Below the pieces are notes generated by a model that was given only the letters and a program-made list of their open reading frames with translations, was not told where the DNA came from and ran no database searches. Positions 7,943 to 18,975 of a stretch of 64,000 bases of DNA are shown here, in pieces. This stretch comes from an uncultured Candidatus Saccharibacteria bacterium (GTDB taxonomy: Bacteria > Patescibacteriota > Saccharimonadia > Saccharimonadales > Saccharimonadaceae). The position numbers and the translations under genes are program-made. Position 1 is the stretch's first letter. Every line of letters begins with the position of its first letter. The DNA is taken from NCBI GenBank assembly GCA_963526325.1, contig CAURNC010000002.1, positions 67,149 to 131,148 on the forward strand, written 5' to 3'.

Positions 7943-8005
7943 TCATACCTTGCCCTAGCGTTTGGTCATTTTCCAAATGCGCCTGGTTTGGGGTACAATA
8001 GGGCA

Positions 8006-9340
8006 ATGAAGAAAGCGCAAACTGCAACGTTAACCCTGGAAAACATCGTGGGCGGCGGCCAGACCATCGGCACGCTGGCAGATGGCCGTAAAGCATTTGT
8101 ATGGGGTGGATTGCCAGGCGAACAAGTGACTATCAGGGTGACCAAGAAAAAATCAAAGCTCGTCGAAGGCGTCGTAACTGAGGTCCATCACGCCAGTCCT
8201 GAGCGCATCACTCCGGTCGATCCAGACAGTTACCTCAGCACCAGTCCCTGGCAGATCATGAACTTTTCAGCAGAGCAGCAGTACAAAGCCCAGCTAATCG
8301 CCGAAGCGTTTAGGCTACATCACGTTACCTTGCCAACTGCGCCGACAGTCTATACGGACGAGCAGCAATTGGCGTATCGTAACAAAGTTGAATACAGCTG
8401 GTACAGTGACACAGACCCAGACTCAGGAATTGACATGCTTGATCTGGCGTTTTTCCGGCGCAGCTCAAAGGGTAAAATCACCGTCGACGGTACCTCACTC
8501 GCTCGTCCCGATATCAACACGTTAGCCGTAGAAATTCGCGATTTACTTCGCACTAAACCAGTCACCGCACGCAACCTCAAAACAGTGCTCATCAGATGCA
8601 ACCAGTCAGGAAAGTGCATTTGGCAATTGTACCTCAAAGACCGCCTGGAAAATATCATCACCGCCGAAGAAGCAGCCGCACTGTCAGCCCAAGGCGGCGA
8701 AATCATCTATTCTAACCCCAAAAGCCCCGCCAGCGTCATCACCGAACGGCTAGCGGCGTTTGGCGACACCGTTCTCACTGACGAGATACTAGACGTTCCG
8801 TTTCGCTATGTTGCCGAAGGATTTTTCCAGGTCAATTTGCCAGTGTATGAGCAGGCACTCACCGACATGGCAGCGTGGATTCGTACCGCGTCAGTAGAGT
8901 CAAATAACGCTCTATCAACTGTTGATATGTATTCGGGTGTTGGCACTATCGGCCTCACTATCGGCGGAGAACATGTCACTTTGGTAGAAATTAACGAACA
9001 TGCCGTCCAGGAAATGCAGCGAAATATTCACGCTTTGGGACGCGAAAATAATACCAAAGCCGTCTTGGCGGCCAGTGAGCAGGCCCTTGATTATATTCAC
9101 CCTGACAATCTCATCATCGTCGATCCGCCACGTGCTGGCTTGCATACAGACGTCATCGACCGCTTATTGGAACAATTACCGCCGCGAATCGTCTACCTGA
9201 GTTGCAACCCCGTTACCCAAGCTCGAGACGTTGCTTTGCTCAGCGAGAACTATCACATTGTGCATCATCAGGGTTACAATTTCTTCCCGCGCACACCACA
9301 CATTGAGAATCTGGTGGTTTTGGACAAGATGCCGCATTAA
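8006..9340 (+). CDS. TRAM-domain RNA m5U methyltransferase (RlmD/TrmA family)
   Basis: FFQVN, DMYSGVGTIG, DPPRAGL, YLSCNP, FPRTPHIE motifs. Confidence 0.93.
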   Translation: MKKAQTATLTLENIVGGGQTIGTLADGRKAFVWGGLPGEQVTIRVTKKKSKLVEGVVTEVHHASPERITPVDPDSYLSTSPWQIMNFSAEQQYKAQLIAEAFRLHHVTLPTAPTVYTDEQQLAYRNKVEYSWYSDTDPDSGIDMLDLAFFRRSSKGKITVDGTSLARPDINTLAVEIRDLLRTKPVTARNLKTVLIRCNQSGKCIWQLYLKDRLENIITAEEAAALSAQGGEIIYSNPKSPASVITERLAAFGDTVLTDEILDVPFRYVAEGFFQVNLPVYEQALTDMAAWIRTASVESNNALSTVDMYSGVGTIGLTIGGEHVTLVEINEHAVQEMQRNIHALGRENNTKAVLAASEQALDYIHPDNLIIVDPPRAGLHTDVIDRLLEQLPPRIVYLSCNPVTQARDVALLSENYHIVHHQGYNFFPRTPHIENLVVLDKMPH

Positions 9341-11658: not shown

Positions 11659-12143
11659 TACTTGGCGCGGACCTTTCTGTAGGCAAACCGTGCGCCCACT
11701 CGCCATTCGCCGTGAACGTCAGGATCAAACTGATGGATTTCACCATTTTTGATCTCTGAAACCACTGCCAGGGCAGGGTTATATGGCGCCAAGGTTCGGT
11801 AGAAAATCAAATCCTCCTCGGACTGTACTGTCATGCCAGGGAATACTTCTTGAAATTTTTGACGACCAAGGATATCAAAATAATCCGGTTGGTATTTAGG
11901 CGGATAGAACTCGTCCAACCTGAGTCCCATGCGCACTGCTATTTTCTTGACATCCGCCAGCGTCATGTTAGACGACGCGCGCAAATAGAGTAGCAACTGA
12001 TTGTTCGATGCCATAAATACCGTCGCTTGGGCCGTACGGCCAACATCAGCCAACGGCAAGATAAATCGCTTTACTGAGACATCAACATCAAACGCTTCGC
12101 TGATTAATGCTTCCAACTCCGACGCGGTCACTGTAGGCTTCAT
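11658..12143 (-). CDS. Hypothetical protein
   Basis: 161 aa ORF, TAAAAT 6 nt before ATG, translationally coupled to the ATPase. Confidence 0.75.
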   Translation of the reverse strand: MKPTVTASELEALISEAFDVDVSVKRFILPLADVGRTAQATVFMASNNQLLLYLRASSNMTLADVKKIAVRMGLRLDEFYPPKYQPDYFDILGRQKFQEVFPGMTVQSEEDLIFYRTLAPYNPALAVVSEIKNGEIHQFDPDVHGEWRVGARFAYRKVRAK

Positions 12144-12186
12144 GGCTTTATTTTACCATTTTCAATCGCACGCGTATACTGTAAGT

Positions 12187-15100
12187 ATGGATTTTTCTAC
12201 ACGCTACGCCAGCCTCAACGCCAATCAACGTTCTGCTGTCGACAAAATTCACGGACCGTTGTTGGTTATCGCAGGTCCTGGCACTGGCAAAACTGAGCTC
12301 TTGAGCATGCGAGCTGCTCACATATTGCGCCAAACTGACACCTTGCCAAGCAATATCTTATGCTTAACGTTTACTGATTCGGGTGCGGTGAACATGCGCC
12401 AGCGCTTGCAGCAAATCATCGGCGAAGATGCCTACAAGGTCGCCATTCATACGTTTCATAGCTTTGGCTCAGAAATTATTAACACCAACCGACAATATTT
12501 CTTCCGCGGCGCAGATCGGCAGCCGACTGACGAACTGACACAGCAACAAATCCTGCAAGAAATTTTCGAAGGTATGGATTGGGATAATCCGCTCAACGCC
12601 AAAAATAATGATGAATTTATCTACCTCAAAGAAACGCTCAAAACCATTTCCGAGTTCAAAAGCAACGGCCTGGCCTCTGAAGAAATACAACATATTTTGG
12701 ACGATGTGGAGCAAACAATCACAGAAATTTCTGAGGCCATCACGCAGCTTTTCCAAACCACCATCAAAAAATCAACTATCCCGGCGTTTGCCAATGTTGC
12801 AGAAATAGCAGCAGCTATCACCCCGCAGCCTCTGCCAGCAGCCATCACACCGTACGCCAATGCACTAGCACTCAGCATGGCCAATGCCGCACAAGAAGCC
12901 TTGGAAAATGACAGCACAAAACCCATCACCGCCTGGAAAAATGCGTGGTGCAAGAAGAATGCAGCAGGGGAGTTTGTCTTAAAGGACAGCGAGTCAATCG
13001 CCAGGCTGCGTGCCGTCACTCACGTGTACGACCAGTACCGCAGTGCGCTGACACAGCGCGGATTGTTTGACTATGACGACATGATTTTAAATGTGCTAGA
13101 TGCCTGCAAACACCAGCCAGATCTGCGCGCCAACCTCCAAGAGCAATACCAGTTCATCATGGTTGACGAATTTCAGGACACCAACCTAGCACAACTACAA
13201 CTATTATTTAATCTGACTGGCGACGAGCCTGAGCCAAACATCATGGCAGTCGGCGACGACGACCAGGCCATCTTCAGCTTCCAAGGCGCCAATGTCGGCA
13301 ATATCCAGCGCTTCCGTCAGCACTATCATGACCCAGCCGTCATCGTCCTGACCGACAACTACCGTTCGGCAGAGCAAATCCTCACCACCGCCCGCAGCGT
13401 CATCACCCAAGGTAGCGACCGCCTGGAAAACACCATCTCCGACCTATCCAAACAACTCACCGCCCACGCTTCATCATCAGGCGCCACCGTGAACCTTAGT
13501 CGTTTCATGACGCCGCTGGATGAAAGGGCGGGCATCGCTAAGCAAATTGCACATCTCATCACCTCAGGCACGCCGCCCGAAGACATCGCCGTCATATCCC
13601 GCCGGCATCATGAACTGATTGAATTATTACCTCACCTCTATCAAAATAACATCAGCGTCAACTATGAGCATCATGACGATATCCTGGAACTAGACAGCAT
13701 CAAAGCGCTGGAGCTCGTAGCCCGCATCGTCATCTCACTTCACAATAACGACCTAACCAACGCCAACAGCTTACTGCCAGAGCTACTGGCGCATCCAGCA
13801 TTTGACTTCGCCGCCACTGACATCTGGAAATTAAGCCTAGCTGCCTGGCGCAACCGACAGTTCTGGCTGGAAGCCATGCTCACCCAAACAACGTTCGAAC
13901 CATTGGCTCAGTGGCTACTAGAACAAGCCAAAAATGTTCCCAACCTCACGCTCGAAGAGCACATCGACGAGCTACTAGGGCTCACTGAAACCGCCACCAA
14001 CCGCGCCCTCTATACCTACTACTTTTCACCAGGAAAATTACAGTCAGACCCGGAAGCCTACCTCACCACCCTAGAAGCGCTGCGCACCTTGCGCCAGAAA
14101 TTACGTGACCACTACACCGAAGCAACGCCAACCTTGACGCAGCTTCTCCAGTTCATCGATCTCCACCATCTGACTAAGACTCGACTCACCAGCATCAGGC
14201 CAGCCGCCGAGCACAAATCAGGCTCGATCAATCTCATGACCGCCCACAAATCAAAGGGCTTGGAATTTCCGCACGTATTCATCATCGGCGCAACTGACAA
14301 CATATGGGGCGAGAAAGTCCGTGCGCGCAGTCGGCTCATCCGCTATCCAGCTAACCTACAGCTCCAGCCGGCAGGCAACAACTACGACGAGCGCCTACGT
14401 CTATTCTTCGTCGCCATGACTCGCGCCAAGCAAACCCTACACATCAGTCACAGCCTCACAGACACTGGTGGCAAAGACAATTTGATCGCCAGTTTCCTAA
14501 GCTCTCTACAGCTAGATACGTCAACCATTGATACCTCCGAGACTGCTGACGCAACCGAGTCACTGCTCACCGACTGGCGCGCCAGACTGACTGAACCACA
14601 CGGCACAACCCTACAGGAAGTCTTGGCACCAATCTTACAGCACTACAAACTGTCCGCCACCCATCTAAACAATTTCCTCGACGTCTCACATGGCGGACCT
14701 CAAGGATTTTTGTTAAATAATTTGCTTCATTTTCCGCAAGCCAAAAGCCCATCCGCTGCCTATGGAACCGCTGTTCACACCTGCCTACAACAACTGCACG
14801 ATAGGTTCGTCGCGGACGGAAACTTGCCGCCACGCCCAGAGATTATGCGTTTGTATACTCAAACCTTAGCAGCGCAACATCTGTCACCAGATGACACCAA
14901 ACTGTTCACCGAAAAAGGCCAGTCAGTCTTGACCGCTTTTCTGGACGCCAAACAGAGCAGCTTCACCCAGCAACAGCTGGCTGAACTTAATTTTGCCAAT
15001 CAAAATTCCTTCGTCGACCAAGCGCAGCTGACAGGAAAGCTAGACCTGGTCGATATAGACAAAACCGCGAAGACTATCTACGTCACCGACTACAAGACCG

Positions 15101-15450
15101 GTAAGCCATCGCACTCCTGGAAGGAAACATCTGACTATGAAAAAATCAAGCTCCACAAATACCGCCAGCAACTGATGTTCTATCAGTTACTAGTCAAAAC
15201 ATCGCGTGATTATGGCAATTTCAGCTTCACCGGCGCCCGCCTACAGTTCGTCGAGCCGGACATGAAAACTGGCGATATCCTCAGCCTGGAAGATACGTTC
15301 TCCGAGGAGGAATTAGCTGAATTTGCGCGGCTCATCGGCGTCGTCTGGCGAAAAATCACCACTCTGGACCTGCCAGACATCTCTGGGTATTCCGCAGACT
15401 ATAAAGGTATGGTGCAGTTCGAAAAGGACTTATTAACAGAGGAAAGGTAA
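12187..15450 (+). CDS. UvrD/PcrA-family helicase with C-terminal PD-(D/E)XK nuclease
   Basis: AGPGTGKT, VDEFQD, GDDDQAIF, NYRS, TAHKSKGLEF, VAMTRAK; C-terminal GKLDLVD...DYKTG. Confidence 0.95.
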   Translation: MDFSTRYASLNANQRSAVDKIHGPLLVIAGPGTGKTELLSMRAAHILRQTDTLPSNILCLTFTDSGAVNMRQRLQQIIGEDAYKVAIHTFHSFGSEIINTNRQYFFRGADRQPTDELTQQQILQEIFEGMDWDNPLNAKNNDEFIYLKETLKTISEFKSNGLASEEIQHILDDVEQTITEISEAITQLFQTTIKKSTIPAFANVAEIAAAITPQPLPAAITPYANALALSMANAAQEALENDSTKPITAWKNAWCKKNAAGEFVLKDSESIARLRAVTHVYDQYRSALTQRGLFDYDDMILNVLDACKHQPDLRANLQEQYQFIMVDEFQDTNLAQLQLLFNLTGDEPEPNIMAVGDDDQAIFSFQGANVGNIQRFRQHYHDPAVIVLTDNYRSAEQILTTARSVITQGSDRLENTISDLSKQLTAHASSSGATVNLSRFMTPLDERAGIAKQIAHLITSGTPPEDIAVISRRHHELIELLPHLYQNNISVNYEHHDDILELDSIKALELVARIVISLHNNDLTNANSLLPELLAHPAFDFAATDIWKLSLAAWRNRQFWLEAMLTQTTFEPLAQWLLEQAKNVPNLTLEEHIDELLGLTETATNRALYTYYFSPGKLQSDPEAYLTTLEALRTLRQKLRDHYTEATPTLTQLLQFIDLHHLTKTRLTSIRPAAEHKSGSINLMTAHKSKGLEFPHVFIIGATDNIWGEKVRARSRLIRYPANLQLQPAGNNYDERLRLFFVAMTRAKQTLHISHSLTDTGGKDNLIASFLSSLQLDTSTIDTSETADATESLLTDWRARLTEPHGTTLQEVLAPILQHYKLSATHLNNFLDVSHGGPQGFLLNNLLHFPQAKSPSAAYGTAVHTCLQQLHDRFVADGNLPPRPEIMRLYTQTLAAQHLSPDDTKLFTEKGQSVLTAFLDAKQSSFTQQQLAELNFANQNSFVDQAQLTGKLDLVDIDKTAKTIYVTDYKTGKPSHSWKETSDYEKIKLHKYRQQLMFYQLLVKTSRDYGNFSFTGARLQFVEPDMKTGDILSLEDTFSEEELAEFARLIGVVWRKITTLDLPDISGYSADYKGMVQFEKDLLTEER

Positions 15451-15467
15451 TTATTTTCCATATATTG

Positions 15468-15496
15468 TTGCTATTTTTTACAGTTCGTGTTATGAT
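15468..15496 (+). promoter_or_regulatory. sigma70 promoter of the structured RNA
   Basis: TTGCTA-17 nt-TATGAT with extended -10 TG. Confidence 0.7.
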
Positions 15497-15928
15497 ATTC
15501 ATTAGCTTTTGTTCGTGGAGCTAACCCTGGTGAGATATCGCAAATGATATCAAACCCTGGTCATGCTTCGCACAAAAGCATGGGCTGAAAGGGGGTTAGC
15601 TCTTTTTCTATCGCCGCAACTCGCGGCAGAGAGGGGGTGAGACCCTTGGTGTTTTTCTCTTATCCCGTAGCATCAATGTATAGCTACGGAGATTATACCA
15701 CTGCAATGACATGCAGTGGTAGAAACCACCATGTTGCGTATAGGCGTCCTGGAGATGCCGGTACGCAGTTTAAATGCCCATACTGCGGGCATTTCATGGT
15801 GTAACACCACACAAATACGACAGTCGGGGTTTGTGCGACCCCGAAACCACTGACCTCCGCGGTCAGTAAAGGGCGTCTGTCCGCCCCTGGGGTGATTCGC
15901 CCAGCTGGTAGCCCAGAAAAGAATCACA

Positions 15929-16016
15929 GGACATATAGCTCTAATCGGCAGAGCGCCCGCGTCGACAACGGTGTCGACGCAATGGGAGGCTGCGGGTTCG
16001 AGTCCCGCTGTGTCCG
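15929..16016 (+). other. tRNA-like domain 1 (extended anticodon arm, no anticodon loop)
   Basis: Acceptor GGACATA/TGTGTCC; D arm GCTC/GAGC; T arm GCGGG-TTCGAGT-CCCGC; anticodon replaced by GCGTCGACA/TGTCGACGC hairpin. Confidence 0.75.
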
Positions 16017-16218
16017 CTTCGCGGTTGCATGCGCAATCACACGACCTCATCACCCGTGTGAAGCCGTATGTAAGCGAAAAAACTTGGGTGTTTCCACCAC
16101 TCCGCCCGAGTTTCATTGACTTCTCAGCTTTGTTTTGTGGTCCAATGGCGTACGACAAACCAAAGCGGGTGTATACCGCTACATCGAGAAGACCAATGTT
16201 TTCAACACAGAATGGTCA

Positions 16219-16288
16219 GGGTGTGCCAGGTAGGGAGACAGGACATTCGAAGTCCACCGTCTCGCGGGTTCGACTCCCGTCACATCCA
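16219..16288 (+). other. tRNA-like domain 2 (no D stem, G3:U70, discriminator A)
   Basis: Acceptor GGGTGTG/CACATCC; T arm GCGGG-TTCGACT-CCCGT; GAGAC..GTCTC and GGAC-ATTCGAA-GTCC arm. Confidence 0.7.
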
Positions 16289-16402
16289 CTGAGATGGCAC
16301 AATGGCGTGTCATCTCTCCCCCCGGGTTCGCGAGATTCACTCGTGGCAGTTTTTCTCACCGTCGAGATCAACTCCGAGCAGAACCGCTTGAGCCCACCAA
16401 CG

Positions 16403-16438
16403 CCCCTCATTCTCAAAGGCGAGAGTGAGGGGTTTTCT
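16403..16438 (+). terminator. Rho-independent terminator
   Basis: CCCCTCATTCTC / GAGAGTGAGGGG then TTTTCT. Confidence 0.8.
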
Positions 16439-16462
16439 CCTTTGTATGGTAAAATAACAGAG

Positions 16463-17539
16463 ATGACATCATTTTGGGACAATCTACCGCAGCCATTTTT
16501 CATCTTGGCACCCATGGAAGCCGTCACTGACGTGGTATTTCGCCATGTCGTGAAAAGGGCGGGCGCGCCCGACGTGTTTTTCACCGAATTTGCCAATGCG
16601 ACCGGCTGGGTACATGCTGGTGACAAAGCCATCGCTGGGCGACTCGTCAAAACCGACGATGAACATCCACTAGTCGCCCAAATCTGGGGCGGTGAGCCAG
16701 GCGACATGGAGCAATTTGCCGCTCACTGCATAAAGCTCGGCTTTGACGGCATTGATATCAACATGGGCTGTCCCGCCAAATCCGCCATCAAAAGCGGGGG
16801 AGCAGCGCTGATTCGCCGACCCGACGTAGCGGTTGCTGCCATCGCCGCTGCTAAAACTGCTGGGCTGCCAGTTAGTGTGAAGACTCGGCTGGGCTATTCA
16901 CGCGTTGACGAGTGGAAAGAATGGCTGAGCACGCTACTGGCGCAGGACCTCACCAACCTGACCATCCACCTCCGCACCAAAAAGGAGATGAGCAAAGTTC
17001 CAGCGCACTACGAGCTTATCGACGACATCGTCAAACTACGCGATGAAATCGCTCCGCAAACTCTCTTGACTATCAACGGCGATATCCGCGACCGCGCCCA
17101 TGGTGAAGAATTAGCTAGAGCTCACCCAGGCCTCAACGGCATCATGATCGGGCGGGGCATTTTCAGCGATCCGTTTTGCTTTAGGAGGGCAGTTAAACTA
17201 TCCTCAGTCGAGGAAGCTGTGACGGGCGCGTCAAGCCCCGTCAGCCGAACGCCACGGGCTGGCGAAGCCACCCGTAAAGAGTCCTCCGAGACAGAGGACA
17301 GTTCAACTATTCATCACAAGTCTGAACTAATTGCCTTACTATACTACCACCTTGACCTCTTTGACCACTACCAATCAACCCTCGGCCGCCCCTACGAAAC
17401 CCTCAAACGCTTCTTCAAAATCTACATCCGCGACTTCGACGGCGCCAAGGAACTGCGCGACCAGCTGATGCACACTAAGACGACCGACGAGGTGCGATCA
17501 ATACTTGCACACAACGATCGTCCACATTATACTTATTGA
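16463..17539 (+). CDS. dus: tRNA-dihydrouridine synthase (Dus)
   Basis: LAPMEAVTD, DINMGCP, SVKTRLG, NGDI, GIMIGRG; true start 16463; carries a ~40 aa insertion. Confidence 0.95.
   Translation: MTSFWDNLPQPFFILAPMEAVTDVVFRHVVKRAGAPDVFFTEFANATGWVHAGDKAIAGRLVKTDDEHPLVAQIWGGEPGDMEQFAAHCIKLGFDGIDINMGCPAKSAIKSGGAALIRRPDVAVAAIAAAKTAGLPVSVKTRLGYSRVDEWKEWLSTLLAQDLTNLTIHLRTKKEMSKVPAHYELIDDIVKLRDEIAPQTLLTINGDIRDRAHGEELARAHPGLNGIMIGRGIFSDPFCFRRAVKLSSVEEAVTGASSPVSRTPRAGEATRKESSETEDSSTIHHKSELIALLYYHLDLFDHYQSTLGRPYETLKRFFKIYIRDFDGAKELRDQLMHTKTTDEVRSILAHNDRPHYTY
17191..17308. repeat. Palindromic in-frame insertion element, copy 1
   Basis: Terminal IR AGTTAAACTATCCTCAGTC / GACAGAGGACAGTTCAACT; two inner hairpins; core TCAGCCGAACGC shared with 28966-28977. 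Confidence 0.75.
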
Positions 17540-17540
17540 C

Positions 17541-18020
17541 ATGACAACAAAAAAACAAAAACTACAAAAACAACAGACTATAGACAGATGGATCGTCATA
17601 GCATTATGGGCAAGTGCTATCTGGTTCTCGCTCGCACGTGGATTCATTACTGGCGTCGGCGGTTGGGTACTAGCACTACTTGGCCCGTGGGCGCTTATCG
17701 TTAGCTGTATCTGTCTTGCAATCATCTCCCGACAAGTGAAAAAACGCCATGCATCAAAAGACCATCTCACCACAATAGTACGTGTTTCCTTTATCGTCAT
17801 GTCAATCTCATTATTTATCTGCGGCCTTGCAATGCCTGATTTTAGCGACATAGAGACCTTTTCAACATTATCCGTGTATACAAATAACGCTATTTCATTT
17901 GAAACATCAAAAGCTATCGCCATTATCTCAGGGTTTGTAGTAGTTCTGTCTCTATTCGTGGCTGTTACTTTTGGTATCGCTGAAGACAGAGAAGAGACGA
18001 CGGAAGACGTCGCTATTTAG
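17541..18020 (+). CDS. Hypothetical integral membrane protein (~4 TM)
   Basis: Hydrophobic segments; TATACT 7 nt before ATG 17541. Confidence 0.75.
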   Translation: MTTKKQKLQKQQTIDRWIVIALWASAIWFSLARGFITGVGGWVLALLGPWALIVSCICLAIISRQVKKRHASKDHLTTIVRVSFIVMSISLFICGLAMPDFSDIETFSTLSVYTNNAISFETSKAIAIISGFVVVLSLFVAVTFGIAEDREETTEDVAI

Positions 18021-18096
18021 ATCAGTGTTAATTAGAGTCTTAGTGCTATACGCAAATTGCTTGAAAAAATATAGATTATATGATATAATACAAAAG

Positions 18097-18975
18097 ATGC
18101 GCCAGTTCGAAGGATATTCACTCACAACACCAATCGCCGTTGGTGATATGCGTGACCTATCAAATCAGGTGGCTCGACTACCTCGAGGAAACATCGCTCT
18201 ATTCGGCACTGACCGACTCGGCATACCGTTAGAGCAGCTCGACATAGAACTAACGCCTCGTGATGATTACGCAGAAGGTCGTCGTAACAGCATCAATAAG
18301 GTTGGGTTTCATGACGCAACATTGTATTGCTCAGACATACCCCTCGTAACTCAGCCTTGGGCAATCAAGCCATATCTTACCTCTCGTACAGCCGTGAAAG
18401 ACATTACCACAATGCAAGCCATTAATAGCCTACAACATCCTCAAGCAATCCGCACCTTTGAACCAAGAGGCATTGCTCATCTCGAAAATGGTAAGGTGGC
18501 GGTTATTAGTGATTTCATACAGGGCGTGCGTAGTTGCGACAGTCTAGTTGATGCATACCGCGAAACGACACTACCTGAGGAAAAAGCGCGACTTATCGCC
18601 CGTACCGCACTCGCTACTATGCACTATTTTCACAGCCTCCCAGAGCCATATACAATGAACGACGCACAGATAAAGAACTTTGCGTTTACTATCAATACCG
18701 AACCGTGGTGTATTGACACTGAAAAATTTCTATCGACAGACAAAGACGACCCAACATCAATCGGTCAATTCGGACGAGATATTGAGTGCTGTGTTTATTC
18801 AATGAGCGGTCAATCTAATAATGACGGTCAGCAAATGTTAATTCCCGAACTTATTATTGAGCATTTTATTAAGCCATACGAAGAGGATATCTCTAATCTA
18901 TTTCCCCGCGATACCGCTAGTATTATGCAAACATCGATCGAAAATCTCAAACAAGACATAGCCCAAGGAGTCTGA
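18097..18975 (+). CDS. Hypothetical protein, possible protein-kinase-like fold
   Basis: WAIKPY, NDAQIKNF and WCIDTE resemble the VAIK, DxxxxN and DFE motifs. Confidence 0.5.
   Translation: MRQFEGYSLTTPIAVGDMRDLSNQVARLPRGNIALFGTDRLGIPLEQLDIELTPRDDYAEGRRNSINKVGFHDATLYCSDIPLVTQPWAIKPYLTSRTAVKDITTMQAINSLQHPQAIRTFEPRGIAHLENGKVAVISDFIQGVRSCDSLVDAYRETTLPEEKARLIARTALATMHYFHSLPEPYTMNDAQIKNFAFTINTEPWCIDTEKFLSTDKDDPTSIGQFGRDIECCVYSMSGQSNNDGQQMLIPELIIEHFIKPYEEDISNLFPRDTASIMQTSIENLKQDIAQGV

Follow-up and report, generated by a model that had tools for sequence, protein, structure and literature searches.

A putative accessory transcription unit upstream of dus in oral Saccharibacteria combines an attenuator-like leader, exchangeable small genes, tRNA mimics and a conserved tail element

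The window analysed here is a stretch of 64,000 nucleotides (nt) from an uncultured Candidatus Saccharibacteria bacterium (contig CAURNC010000002.1, positions 67,149 to 131,148, of assembly GCA_963526325.1, hereafter G000), and our subject is the spacer at 15451-16462 of this window, which separates a helicase-nuclease gene from the gene dus; all three lie on the + strand. The anatomy of the spacer is well supported and comprises an attenuated leader, a small open reading frame (sORF), one or more pseudoknot-tRNA mimics, a tail RNA and a terminator. The reading towards which we lean, with a confidence only modestly better than even, is that these parts form one accessory transcription unit, that is, an attenuated sORF mRNA with a structured 3' part, in which the mimics serve as handles for tRNA processing. 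In detail, the promoter would drive a ~110-nt leader that chooses between a terminator with a three-way junction and a competing helix, and this leader would set the output of the whole unit. Read-through would reach a strong Shine-Dalgarno (SD) sequence and a gene of 50-58 codons, and the same strand would run on into the hairpins, the pseudoknot, the mimic(s), the tail and the terminator. As handles, the mimics may attract RNase P, RNase Z/3' trimming, CCA addition and T-loop and D-loop modifiers. Processing would then split the transcript, leaving an sORF mRNA capped by structure and at least one stable small RNA; the most constrained of these products would be the tail element together with the terminator. 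Continuity of the unit is suggested by the alignment, in which no conserved promoter or terminator is seen by eye between the sORF stop and the first hairpin. The spacer contains the following features.

15468-15496, + strand: promoter (TTGCTA, 17 nt, TG-extended TATGAT), from a consensus scan
15497-15608, + strand: leader with two exclusive folds, from conserved pairing
15612-15640, + strand: small hairpin (15613-15627) and SD sequence GGGGGTGA (15633-15640), read from the sequence
15646-15804, + strand: sORF of 52 amino acids (aa) with TTG start and a putative Cys/His zinc-binding product, from translation and codon periodicity
15819-15928, + strand: array with hairpins H1 (15824-15844), H2 (15849-15867) and H3 (15871-15886), from covariation
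15887-15927, + strand: H-type pseudoknot within this array, with stem S1 (15887-15891/15900-15904), inner hairpin (15905-15916) and stem S2 (15892-15898/15921-15927), from covariation
15929-16017, + strand: tRNA-like domain 1 with acceptor, D arm with GG, and T arm, from the Rfam tRNA model and covariation
16018-16218, + strand: second block of clade-specific hairpins (16022-16076; 16083-16110; 16131-16163 with loop CAATGGCG; 16165-16179), fold z -4.7
16219-16291, + strand: tRNA-like domain 2 with acceptor GGGTGTG/CACATCC, G3:U70, A73 and T arm, from ARAGORN and Rfam
16292-16316, + strand: hairpin with loop CAATGGCG, six pairs of which covary
16324-16395, + strand: tail element of ~72 nt, an irregular helix (16324-16343 with 16375-16395) around a small hairpin (16355-16367), from covariation and identity
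16402-16443, + strand: intrinsic terminator with 13-bp stem and T-run, from a scan; stem pairs covary (CG 38/UA 31)
16447-16462, + strand: promoter belonging to dus, with TG-extended -10 TAAAAT (16450-16455), read from the sequence

Two sets of loci were compared. The first comprises 20 same-genus loci (the window being L001), whose spacers were aligned with MAFFT; the second was obtained by a pattern scan of a species-representative collection independently of the first 20 and holds at least 80 loci, those listed being titled Candidatus Saccharibacteria, Candidatus Nanosynbacter or TM7 oral taxa. The spacer lies between helicase and dus genes in 20/20 loci of the first set and in 76 of the 80 further loci listed, and its length is 668-1035 nt in the former and 609-1961 nt in the latter. 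Several alignment readings (promoter, SD in three loci, CCA/CCG ends, stems in relatives) were made by eye, and alignments A6-A8 were fitted to covariance models, so that their pair counts lean toward structure.

An initial annotation of this DNA had placed an extended -10 promoter at 15468-15496, and the consensus scan indeed returned a single sigma-70-like site with TG extension there. The -35/-10 block is kept in 18/20 loci, and in L009 and L010 another promoter-like block takes its place (alignment by eye). The leader behind it can adopt two conserved folds. In the terminator fold, P1 (15518-15527/15593-15602), followed by a U-run (15603-15607), encloses P2 (15534-15551) and P3 (15562-15582) in a three-way junction; this is the stem GAGCTAACCC/GGGTTAGCTC (15518/15593) around two hairpins that had already been proposed and that we recovered as an inverted repeat. 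In the alignment, 96.0% of the cells are paired in this fold as compared to 30-41% in slid controls, and eight pairs are changed on both sides. The alternative helix joins 15505-15521 with 15565-15579 and destroys P1 and P3. It is 92.5% paired and kept mostly through G:U/G:C/A:U exchanges, the whole tested structure reaching 93.5% versus 32-51% when slid. The minimum-energy fold of the full length contains the alternative helix, and that of the leader alone is the terminator form (z -4.45). P2, which resembles a tandem copy of P3, is absent in 8/20 loci. Two exclusive conserved folds, one of them a predicted terminator, are what one would expect of an attenuator or riboswitch; Rfam returned no riboswitch or T-box match at E<=10 over 15300-16600. 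At the 3' side of the leader, SD and start codon were found in 17/20 loci by a regular expression, and the other three have AAGGGTGA followed by ATG (by eye).

The frame that follows encodes a product with the motif C-x5-H ... CPYC-x-H. In four distinct orthologues, which align with 0 indels, variable columns at codon positions 1/2/3 number 12/11/38, and the differing codons comprise 101 synonymous versus 64 non-synonymous changes in frame, as compared to 9/154 and 13/146 in the other frames. Two further cassette families show the same third-position bias (18/16/42 and 3/5/16). By its SD, length and substitution pattern, 15646-15804 thus looks like a translated, protein-coding sORF. Its product matches no Pfam family above cut-off and has only two homologues among 5.8 billion clusters. 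In every locus read (20/20) a 50-58-codon open reading frame (ORF) stands at this position, the encoded proteins being unrelated. Clustering over 100 loci gave candidate sets present in 18, 17, 16, 13, 13, 7, 6 and 5 loci plus smaller sets, by a crude SD-plus-ORF rule that must have let through some false candidates; the set found in 7 loci could be the shadow of a gene read out of frame. Many cassettes of relatives are Cys-rich, and several families contain the DnaJ-type motif CxxCxGxG; others are devoid of cysteines. In a DNA contig of a related strain, taken from a public run, 15649-15821 is replaced by 181 other letters. The sORF piece also has the strongest fold of any module here (z -5.8), with only -2.5 for the L003 orthologue. 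Within it, hand pairing gives a 13-of-14-bp hairpin at 15733-15768 that is partly kept in L003 via synonymous changes.

Leader and sORF bear directly on the central claim of the initial annotation, which saw here a single ornate RNA of ~930 nt, made of almost uninterrupted stems between its own promoter and terminator. The raw observation behind it is real and not a chance effect. The 949-nt stretch folds on the + strand with -409 kcal/mol as compared to -317 +/- 10 for 20 shuffles (z -8.9), so that the shuffle comparison suggested at the time came out in favour of structure, and every module beats its own shuffles (z -4.45, -5.8, -3.1, -3.6, -4.7, -1.8 and -4.9). Since the minus strand scores almost the same (-390 kcal/mol, z -8.8), folding energy alone cannot choose the strand; it is G:U pairs in covarying helices that favour the + strand, in line with the G:U-containing + strand stems pointed out earlier. 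Among the stems then listed, TCGGGGT/ACCCCGA, ACTGACC/GGTCAGT, GTGATTC/GAATCAC, AAACTTGGGTG/CGCCCGAGTTT and GAGATGGCAC/GTGTCATCTC are present both in the sequence and in the minimum-energy fold, and the terminator at the 3' end was retrieved by the consensus scan as a 13-bp hairpin (16402-16433) followed by a T-run. Three others are present as complementary letters, namely CCGTAGC/GCTACGG, TACCACTGCA/TGCAGTGGTA (recovered as an inverted repeat) and the CACCATG/CATGGTG 'multibranch'. However, all three lie inside the coding sORF at 15646-15804, and the first two are not complementary in L003-L005, loci with the same sORF, as judged by eye from the alignment.

The stems are thus far from uninterrupted elements of one RNA, as ~160 nt belong to a coding sequence and, ~100 nt into the transcript, a stem with U-run (15593-15607) resembles a terminator. 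We consider it very improbable that promoter and terminator delimit one non-coding RNA of the GOLLD or ROOL kind, even though the two signals bracket the stretch, its folding exceeds that of shuffles by the margin given above and no known family explains it. The stretch encodes a protein that is swapped between species, it carries a terminator within its leader, and the spacer differs more than three-fold in length among the loci listed, with modules that are present, absent, duplicated or exchanged from species to species, each independently of the others; a covarying long-range closing helix was not found, though it was not systematically tested for. What stands of the earlier proposal of an undescribed RNA class is a conserved, covarying and unclassified structured RNA, which does not amount to one large RNA of the GOLLD kind. 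As a general caution, counting stems can make a stretch that hides a coding gene look like one giant RNA.

Downstream of the sORF, pairing is preserved by compensatory changes. The three hairpins and the pseudoknot contribute 35 pairs, which in 19 sequences are 88.1% paired (25-49% when slid) with double-sided changes at 16 pairs (2-6 when slid). A model without the tRNA part matches 42 of the 80 loci listed, and in these matches, which form a model-fitted alignment, 95.0% of the cells are paired and 23/28 pairs are changed on both sides. Within the pseudoknot, S1 (CTGGG/CCCAG) is 95.3% paired, 96.4% in the second set, and 3/5 of its pairs are changed on both sides. S2, in which the loop GTGATTC pairs with GAATCAC and which may or may not enclose the inner hairpin, shows five invariant or wobble pairs plus a G:C to U:A change; its support is weaker than that of S1, with 77-85% of the cells paired, a value that partly reflects misalignment. 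In the G029-type pseudoknot, S2 is one pair shorter on each side (by eye). The comparison thus points to an H-type pseudoknot both of whose stems are supported by covariation, S2 more weakly.

The two tRNA-like domains of the initial annotation were found at 15929-16017 and 16219-16291. Domain 1 reaches 43.6 bits with the Rfam tRNA model (RF00005; gathering score 29) at 15929-16016. In 49 distinct sequences its acceptor is 99.7% paired with double changes at 5/7 pairs, and its T stem 98.8% with double changes at 3/5, the T loop being of the GTTCGA type; the D region of all aligned orthologues contains GG (by eye). In place of the anticodon arm there are 25 nt as compared to 11 in the model, folded into a 3+9-bp hairpin with a 4-nt loop, and this long closed hairpin varies between lineages. 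ARAGORN calls the domain of the window tRNA-Ser(cga), and its calls among the 20 loci comprise Ser (five), Val (three), Arg (three), Trp (one) and undetermined (two), with none in 9/20. The 5-bp anticodon stem, the 7-nt loop and an anticodon stable among orthologues, by which a tRNA would be recognised, are all missing from domain 1, and canonical tRNA-Ser(CGA) and tRNA-Arg(TCG) genes reside elsewhere in the genome. By its predicted fold, domain 1 is a mimic of the tRNA L-shape that is unable to decode. The bases after the discriminator are CCA or CCG in several relatives (by eye), and CCA in G291, which fits a tRNA-type 3' end. From the retention of the acceptor/T stack and the D/T contact, the freedom of the decoding part to vary and the CC(A/G) after the discriminator, we infer the role as a processing handle.

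Only L001-L008 have the second block in full; partial matches to ~16068-16160 were aligned in L009, L013, L015, L016 and L018, and indels between orthologues are not multiples of three. Domain 2 at its end has no D stem and instead a nested 5-bp and 4-bp hairpin. ARAGORN reports it as a 71-nt 'tRNA-Arg(tcg)', and its best Rfam model is transfer-messenger RNA (tmRNA), at 31 bits versus a gathering score of 47. As its acceptor sequence also closes the single tRNA-like domain of G029/G312-type relatives, the long form of the window looks like two allelic units in tandem. G3:U70 together with A73 is present in domain 2 of the window and in the G029-type domain; L002, L006 and L008, three of the eight loci with domain 2, lack one 5' acceptor base and consequently G3:U70 (by eye), and among the 49 distinct domain-1-type sequences only four have G:U at 3:70.

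In the hairpin following domain 2, all six pairs are changed on both sides somewhere among 70 distinct sequences. Its loop, of the CAATGGCG type, varies between species (CAAUGGCG, CAACGAUG, CAAAGGCG). A T-box-like UGGN pairing of the CAAUGGCG loops was considered and rejected, as U and N do not track the discriminator (by eye). A C-rich linker leads from this hairpin to the tail element, which is 80-100% identical to relatives as compared to 41-50% at the fourfold degenerate sites of dus. In the 70 sequences the outer five pairs of the tail covary (GC 42/AU 23/GU 4, CG 25/AU 23/UG 20, UA 47/CG 23). No variation was seen in the interior among the 18 sequences aligned first; in the 70-sequence set, its invariance is partly forced by the search pattern. 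L017, L019 and L020 disrupt a competing local hairpin (CGCGAG/CTCGTG) but compensate the long-range pairing of the tail. The element occurs as a single copy in 100/131 genomes of the genus and in 71/79 of the high-quality ones. A sample of the family outside the genus (150 genomes, 95 genera) gave a single convincing case, G291, in which compensatory changes maintain the whole outer helix. A match of the tail model in G190 was not counted as a homologue, because its alignment covers the terminator part only.

These properties of tail, loops and mimics could also be explained by our main rival reading, which we hold to be unlikely though well worth keeping in view: the RNA part would be a trans-acting RNA of a ribonucleoprotein, which would use the L-shaped mimic and the CAAYGGYG loops either to bind and titrate a protein that recognises tRNA or to give it a scaffold (candidates being a modification enzyme, EF-Tu, SmpB or a tRNA-targeting toxin), and the sORF would simply share the promoter. 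Selection for a tRNA shape devoid of decoding capacity agrees with it, and so do the invariant tail interior, as expected of a sequence-specific protein site, and domain 2 with G3:U70, A73 and tmRNA as best model. Moreover, CAAYGGYG occurs three times on the + strand of the spacer, each time in a hairpin loop, out of 13 matches on both strands of the window, and the 3' strand of the pseudoknot ends 1 nt before the acceptor stem, so that domain 1 may stay embedded. However, G3:U70 is as rare among domain-1-type sequences as stated above, the loop motif is replaced by others between species, no candidate partner gene co-occurs in the neighbourhood, and an sORF precedes the RNA part in 20/20 loci read.

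The dus gene itself (16463-17539, + strand; Pfam Dus, E 3.7e-46) adjoins the unit, as stated in the initial annotation, which stressed the position directly upstream of a tRNA-modifying enzyme; a functional tie to dus was not found. One could imagine that the spacer is the cis-regulatory 5' region of dus, in which the mimic and/or tail plus terminator let Dus or a metabolite control the gene. Dus binds tRNA D-loops and the mimics keep the D-loop GG, and tail plus terminator lie 66-75 nt before dus in 41 of the 80 loci listed. We nevertheless regard such control as improbable, since a conserved TG-extended -10 element that belongs to dus lies 7 nt before its ATG, in a block that is 81-100% identical to L001 in the other 19 loci. 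In addition, a second unit of 473-618 nt separates tail and dus in 35 of the 80 loci listed, the gap exceeds 1 kb in two of them, and in L081 an HTH-Fic-like ORF intervenes. In G016, dus follows the helicase gene directly, the loci L065 and L066 are devoid of the tail (by eye), and outside this genus the scan of the family detected it in a single genus.

Some further observations concern the region around the dus start. No SD sequence is found between the -10 element and the ATG at 16463, and dus appears leaderless. An N-terminal extension of Dus was discarded as an explanation of the spacer: the frame is open for 189 codons upstream here, but for 11-189 across the 20 loci. Likewise rejected was an antisense interaction of 16308-16317 with the complementary dus start region at 16459-16468, which is restricted to hairpins of the GAGATG type and of which ~0.6 would be expected by chance (rough estimate). 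The second unit of G291 (L087, 1690-1910), the one locus of this kind that was read, combines a promoter-like site (TTGACA/TACAAT) with a small hairpin resembling a terminator and a tRNA mimic; the long arm of this mimic terminates in a CAAUGGAG loop, and CCA is encoded in the first mimic of the locus. The ORF in L081 (2586-3506, G029) comprises 306 aa with an N-terminal helix-turn-helix (HTH)-like region, and contains HPFSDGNGRTGR, which we take to be a Fic motif.

On the other side of the spacer lies the helicase-nuclease gene (12001-15450, + strand), whose AddA-like product of 1149 aa carries UvrD and PD-(D/E)XK domains (Pfam). Farther out, a gene for a TRAM-domain tRNA/rRNA (uracil-5)-methyltransferase is located at 7988-9340, 6 kb upstream of the spacer, and a 334-aa ORF at 17971-18975 after dus gave no Pfam match. 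The genome was rightly described as reduced; G000 comprises 717 kb in 6 contigs and is 92% complete.

As for distribution, BLAST detected spacer pieces in 26/36 other genomes of the genus and none in 24 genomes representing 24 other families of the order (0/24). A model that includes the tRNA-like part was uninformative, as it matched 151/151 genomes of the order at tRNA-level scores; one of these genomes (G069) is marked as unpublished and supports none of our conclusions. Among the genomes compared, no genera other than Nanosynbacter and one neighbour, all oral Saccharibacteria, were seen to possess the RNA modules. In the more divergent genus member G016 (L083), helicase stop and dus start are essentially adjacent and the whole unit is absent, which could reflect either an ancestral absence or its clean removal. 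In the sister genera represented by L065 and L066 the spacer is long, too, and contains different small Cys-rich ORFs; one of the two genera also has an odd tRNA-like element. Between closer relatives the modules differ in their divergence: compared with the window, RNA and sORF modules of L002 (G025) are 95-100% identical, the dus-promoter block 90% and the fourfold sites of dus 72%, and the spacer of L006 (G024) matches except for the sORF cassette. This pattern fits a signature of recent recombination. The Nanosynbacter lineage is reported to be naturally competent and to take up and recombine DNA (PMC10633639), and blocks that are identical beyond the level of dus fourfold sites would fit recombination in such a lineage.

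Least probable of all, in our view, is that the spacer contains decaying remnants without present function, such as pseudo-tRNAs, scars of mobile elements at a tRNA gene and hitch-hiking ORFs. Its mosaic and variable content, the accessory gene inserted in some relatives, the absence of the locus from one genus member and the competence just mentioned, which favours exchange, are all compatible with decay. However, every helix tested is kept by compensatory changes, identity of the tail stays at 80-100% although synonymous sites are close to saturation, the examined flanks yielded no integrase, and the unit is retained in 100/131 genomes of a lineage reported to be 94% coding (PMC10768705).

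Public sequencing runs contained RNA-library contigs covering 15982-16116 and 16055-16206 (two libraries from two studies), a weak hint that the block between the domains is abundant as RNA. Several points nevertheless weigh against one unit that is processed at its mimics. The contig 15982-16116, which is bounded by adapter sequence, runs through the 3' end of domain 1 and is not cut there. At most 4% of the words were present in any RNA run and no run of any kind reached half of them, and carry-over of DNA is possible; moreover, the public runs are assembled contigs, in which transcript ends are invisible and uncovered parts carry no meaning. With a pseudoknot abutting the acceptor, RNase P would find an unfavourable leader, and the mimic may remain uncut on its 5' side. 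The leader terminator could end a separate RNA of ~105 nt. Finally, the modules are mosaic between species, and together with a genus member that has no spacer this argues that the unit is dispensable.

At gathering scores, tRNA at 15929-16016 is the only known-family match of Rfam to the spacer in a scan of the window. GOLLD, ROOL, OLE, HEARO and raiA gave no gathering-score hit in the 64 kb and none at E<=10 in 15300-16600, and at the latter threshold RNase P, signal recognition particle (SRP) RNA, 6S, T-box and any riboswitch were likewise unmatched in that interval. The Rfam scan proposed with the initial annotation has therefore left tRNA as the sole family to reach threshold, tmRNA remaining below its gathering score, and agrees with the remark that RNase P and SRP signatures are missing. 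The proposed collection of homologues was equally productive: homologous loci were found, and leader, hairpin/pseudoknot/tRNA-like part and tail covary.

Two candidate identities were excluded. G000 contains genes for SmpB and the RNase P protein RnpA, and neither tmRNA nor RNase P RNA was found in it. An odd tmRNA was rejected, because 5/5 complete same-genus relatives carry a standard tmRNA of ~400 nt elsewhere (82-92 bits). An RNase P RNA, considered on account of a resemblance of CAGAACCGCTTGAGCC to conserved regions of RNase P, was rejected as well, as no model hit was obtained and the same 5/5 relatives have a class-A RNase P RNA elsewhere (257-267 bits). In these relatives the two genes are ~3 kb apart, so both most likely fall into one assembly gap of G000. 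tRNA-Ala and tRNA-Ile are missing from the ARAGORN list of G000, too; our guess is that they reside in the rRNA operon.

The three RNA elements, that is, the leader, the pseudoknot-tRNA mimic and the 72-nt tail, are unclassified. In the literature searched on RNAs of Saccharibacteria, Nanosynbacter and Patescibacteria we found no published description of the locus or its RNA, and in the accessible part of a 2017 survey of 224 motifs lysM-TM7 is the only one mentioned for TM7. The genomes of Nanosynbacter and relatives are reported to be ~94% coding with short spacers (PMC10768705), which makes a spacer of 0.6-2 kb that is full of covarying RNA and kept in most species unusual. The sORF position also serves as an exchange site, where one species may have a small protein unrelated to that of another; many of these proteins are Cys-rich. 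Nanosynbacter and its relatives serve as cultured, genetically tractable models of Patescibacteria, and since their reported uptake and recombination of DNA (PMC10633639) should make deletions and reporter fusions feasible, the purpose of the mimic is directly testable.

Several known systems resemble parts of this locus. Like tmRNA (RF00023), it has an acceptor and T arm but no anticodon loop, within a larger RNA that also comprises a pseudoknot and a short ORF. However, the tmRNA model stays below its gathering score with 303 model positions deleted, domain 2 has only 73 nt, the acceptor strands do not enclose a tag ORF (the sORF is located upstream, with its own SD and start), and G3:U70 is not general among the tRNA-like domains. 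The T arm of the tmRNA of this genus also differs from that of domain 2; the genuine tmRNAs in L029 and L032 have an unusual T arm, CCGGGGGCAGTACCCGG, instead of one of the GGTTCGA type (by eye).

Bacterial Y RNA (YrlA) is a non-coding RNA with a tRNA-like module that acts with Ro60/Rsr, whose gene is usually adjacent. A TROVE/Ro60 domain (PF05731) was absent from 5/5 genomes searched, with a positive Deinococcus control. Unlike in YrlA, for which Rfam gave no hit, the acceptor here is closed by the ends of the domain itself and not by those of the whole RNA. The leader finds a parallel in the anti-TRAP (rtpA) operon of Bacillus subtilis, where a terminator/antiterminator leader precedes a gene for a ~53-aa zinc protein with the DnaJ-type motif CxxCxGxG. 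Here, too, a switch-like leader is followed by a gene for a small protein, and cassettes D and E of relatives contain CxxCxGxG, one relative's cassette giving a below-cut-off hit to PF15777 (anti-TRAP) with E 0.006. In contrast to anti-TRAP, the ~110-nt leader has no T-box match, and the cassette of this genome encodes a different Cys/His protein.

GOLLD and ROOL are described as large and highly structured RNAs of unknown function near tRNA-type sequences (PMC5737381; bioRxiv 10.1101/2024.12.08.627333). The spacer shares size, structure and tRNA-type sequences with them; however, it includes a coding gene, is modular, has no phage context and gave no match to either family at E<=10. Viral contigs yielded 47 word hits, about the number expected by chance (estimate), 0/47 of which hold the tail element.

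With respect to processing, the closest parallels are eukaryotic or organellar, namely mascRNA of MALAT1/MEN-beta and the tRNA punctuation of polycistronic transcripts, in which a cloverleaf within a long transcript is cut by RNase P and RNase Z, so that ends of adjacent RNAs arise. The mimics would similarly represent non-decoding cloverleaves within a longer RNA and putative cut sites for RNase P/RNase Z, but they are bacterial, and the Rfam mascRNA model scores only 16.6 bits versus a gathering score of 42.5. The order of parts is that of plant RNA viruses such as turnip yellow mosaic virus (TYMV) and tobacco mosaic virus (TMV), in which one or several pseudoknots come after the coding RNA and a tRNA mimic occupies the 3' end or a place close to it. 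Coding RNA, pseudoknot and tRNA mimic follow each other here as well; unlike in these viruses, they reside in a bacterial chromosome, further RNA modules and a terminator come after the mimic, and any aminoacylation or CCA addition is hypothetical. It is conceivable, though we consider it rather doubtful, that the locus encodes a chromosomal mRNA ending in a pseudoknot and a tRNA-like domain in this manner, the mimic receiving CCA and, in the G3:U70/A73 type, perhaps alanine. If this were true, the tRNA maturation and charging state of the cell would be coupled to the release of the tail RNA and to the fate, or the translation, of a swappable mRNA for a small protein.

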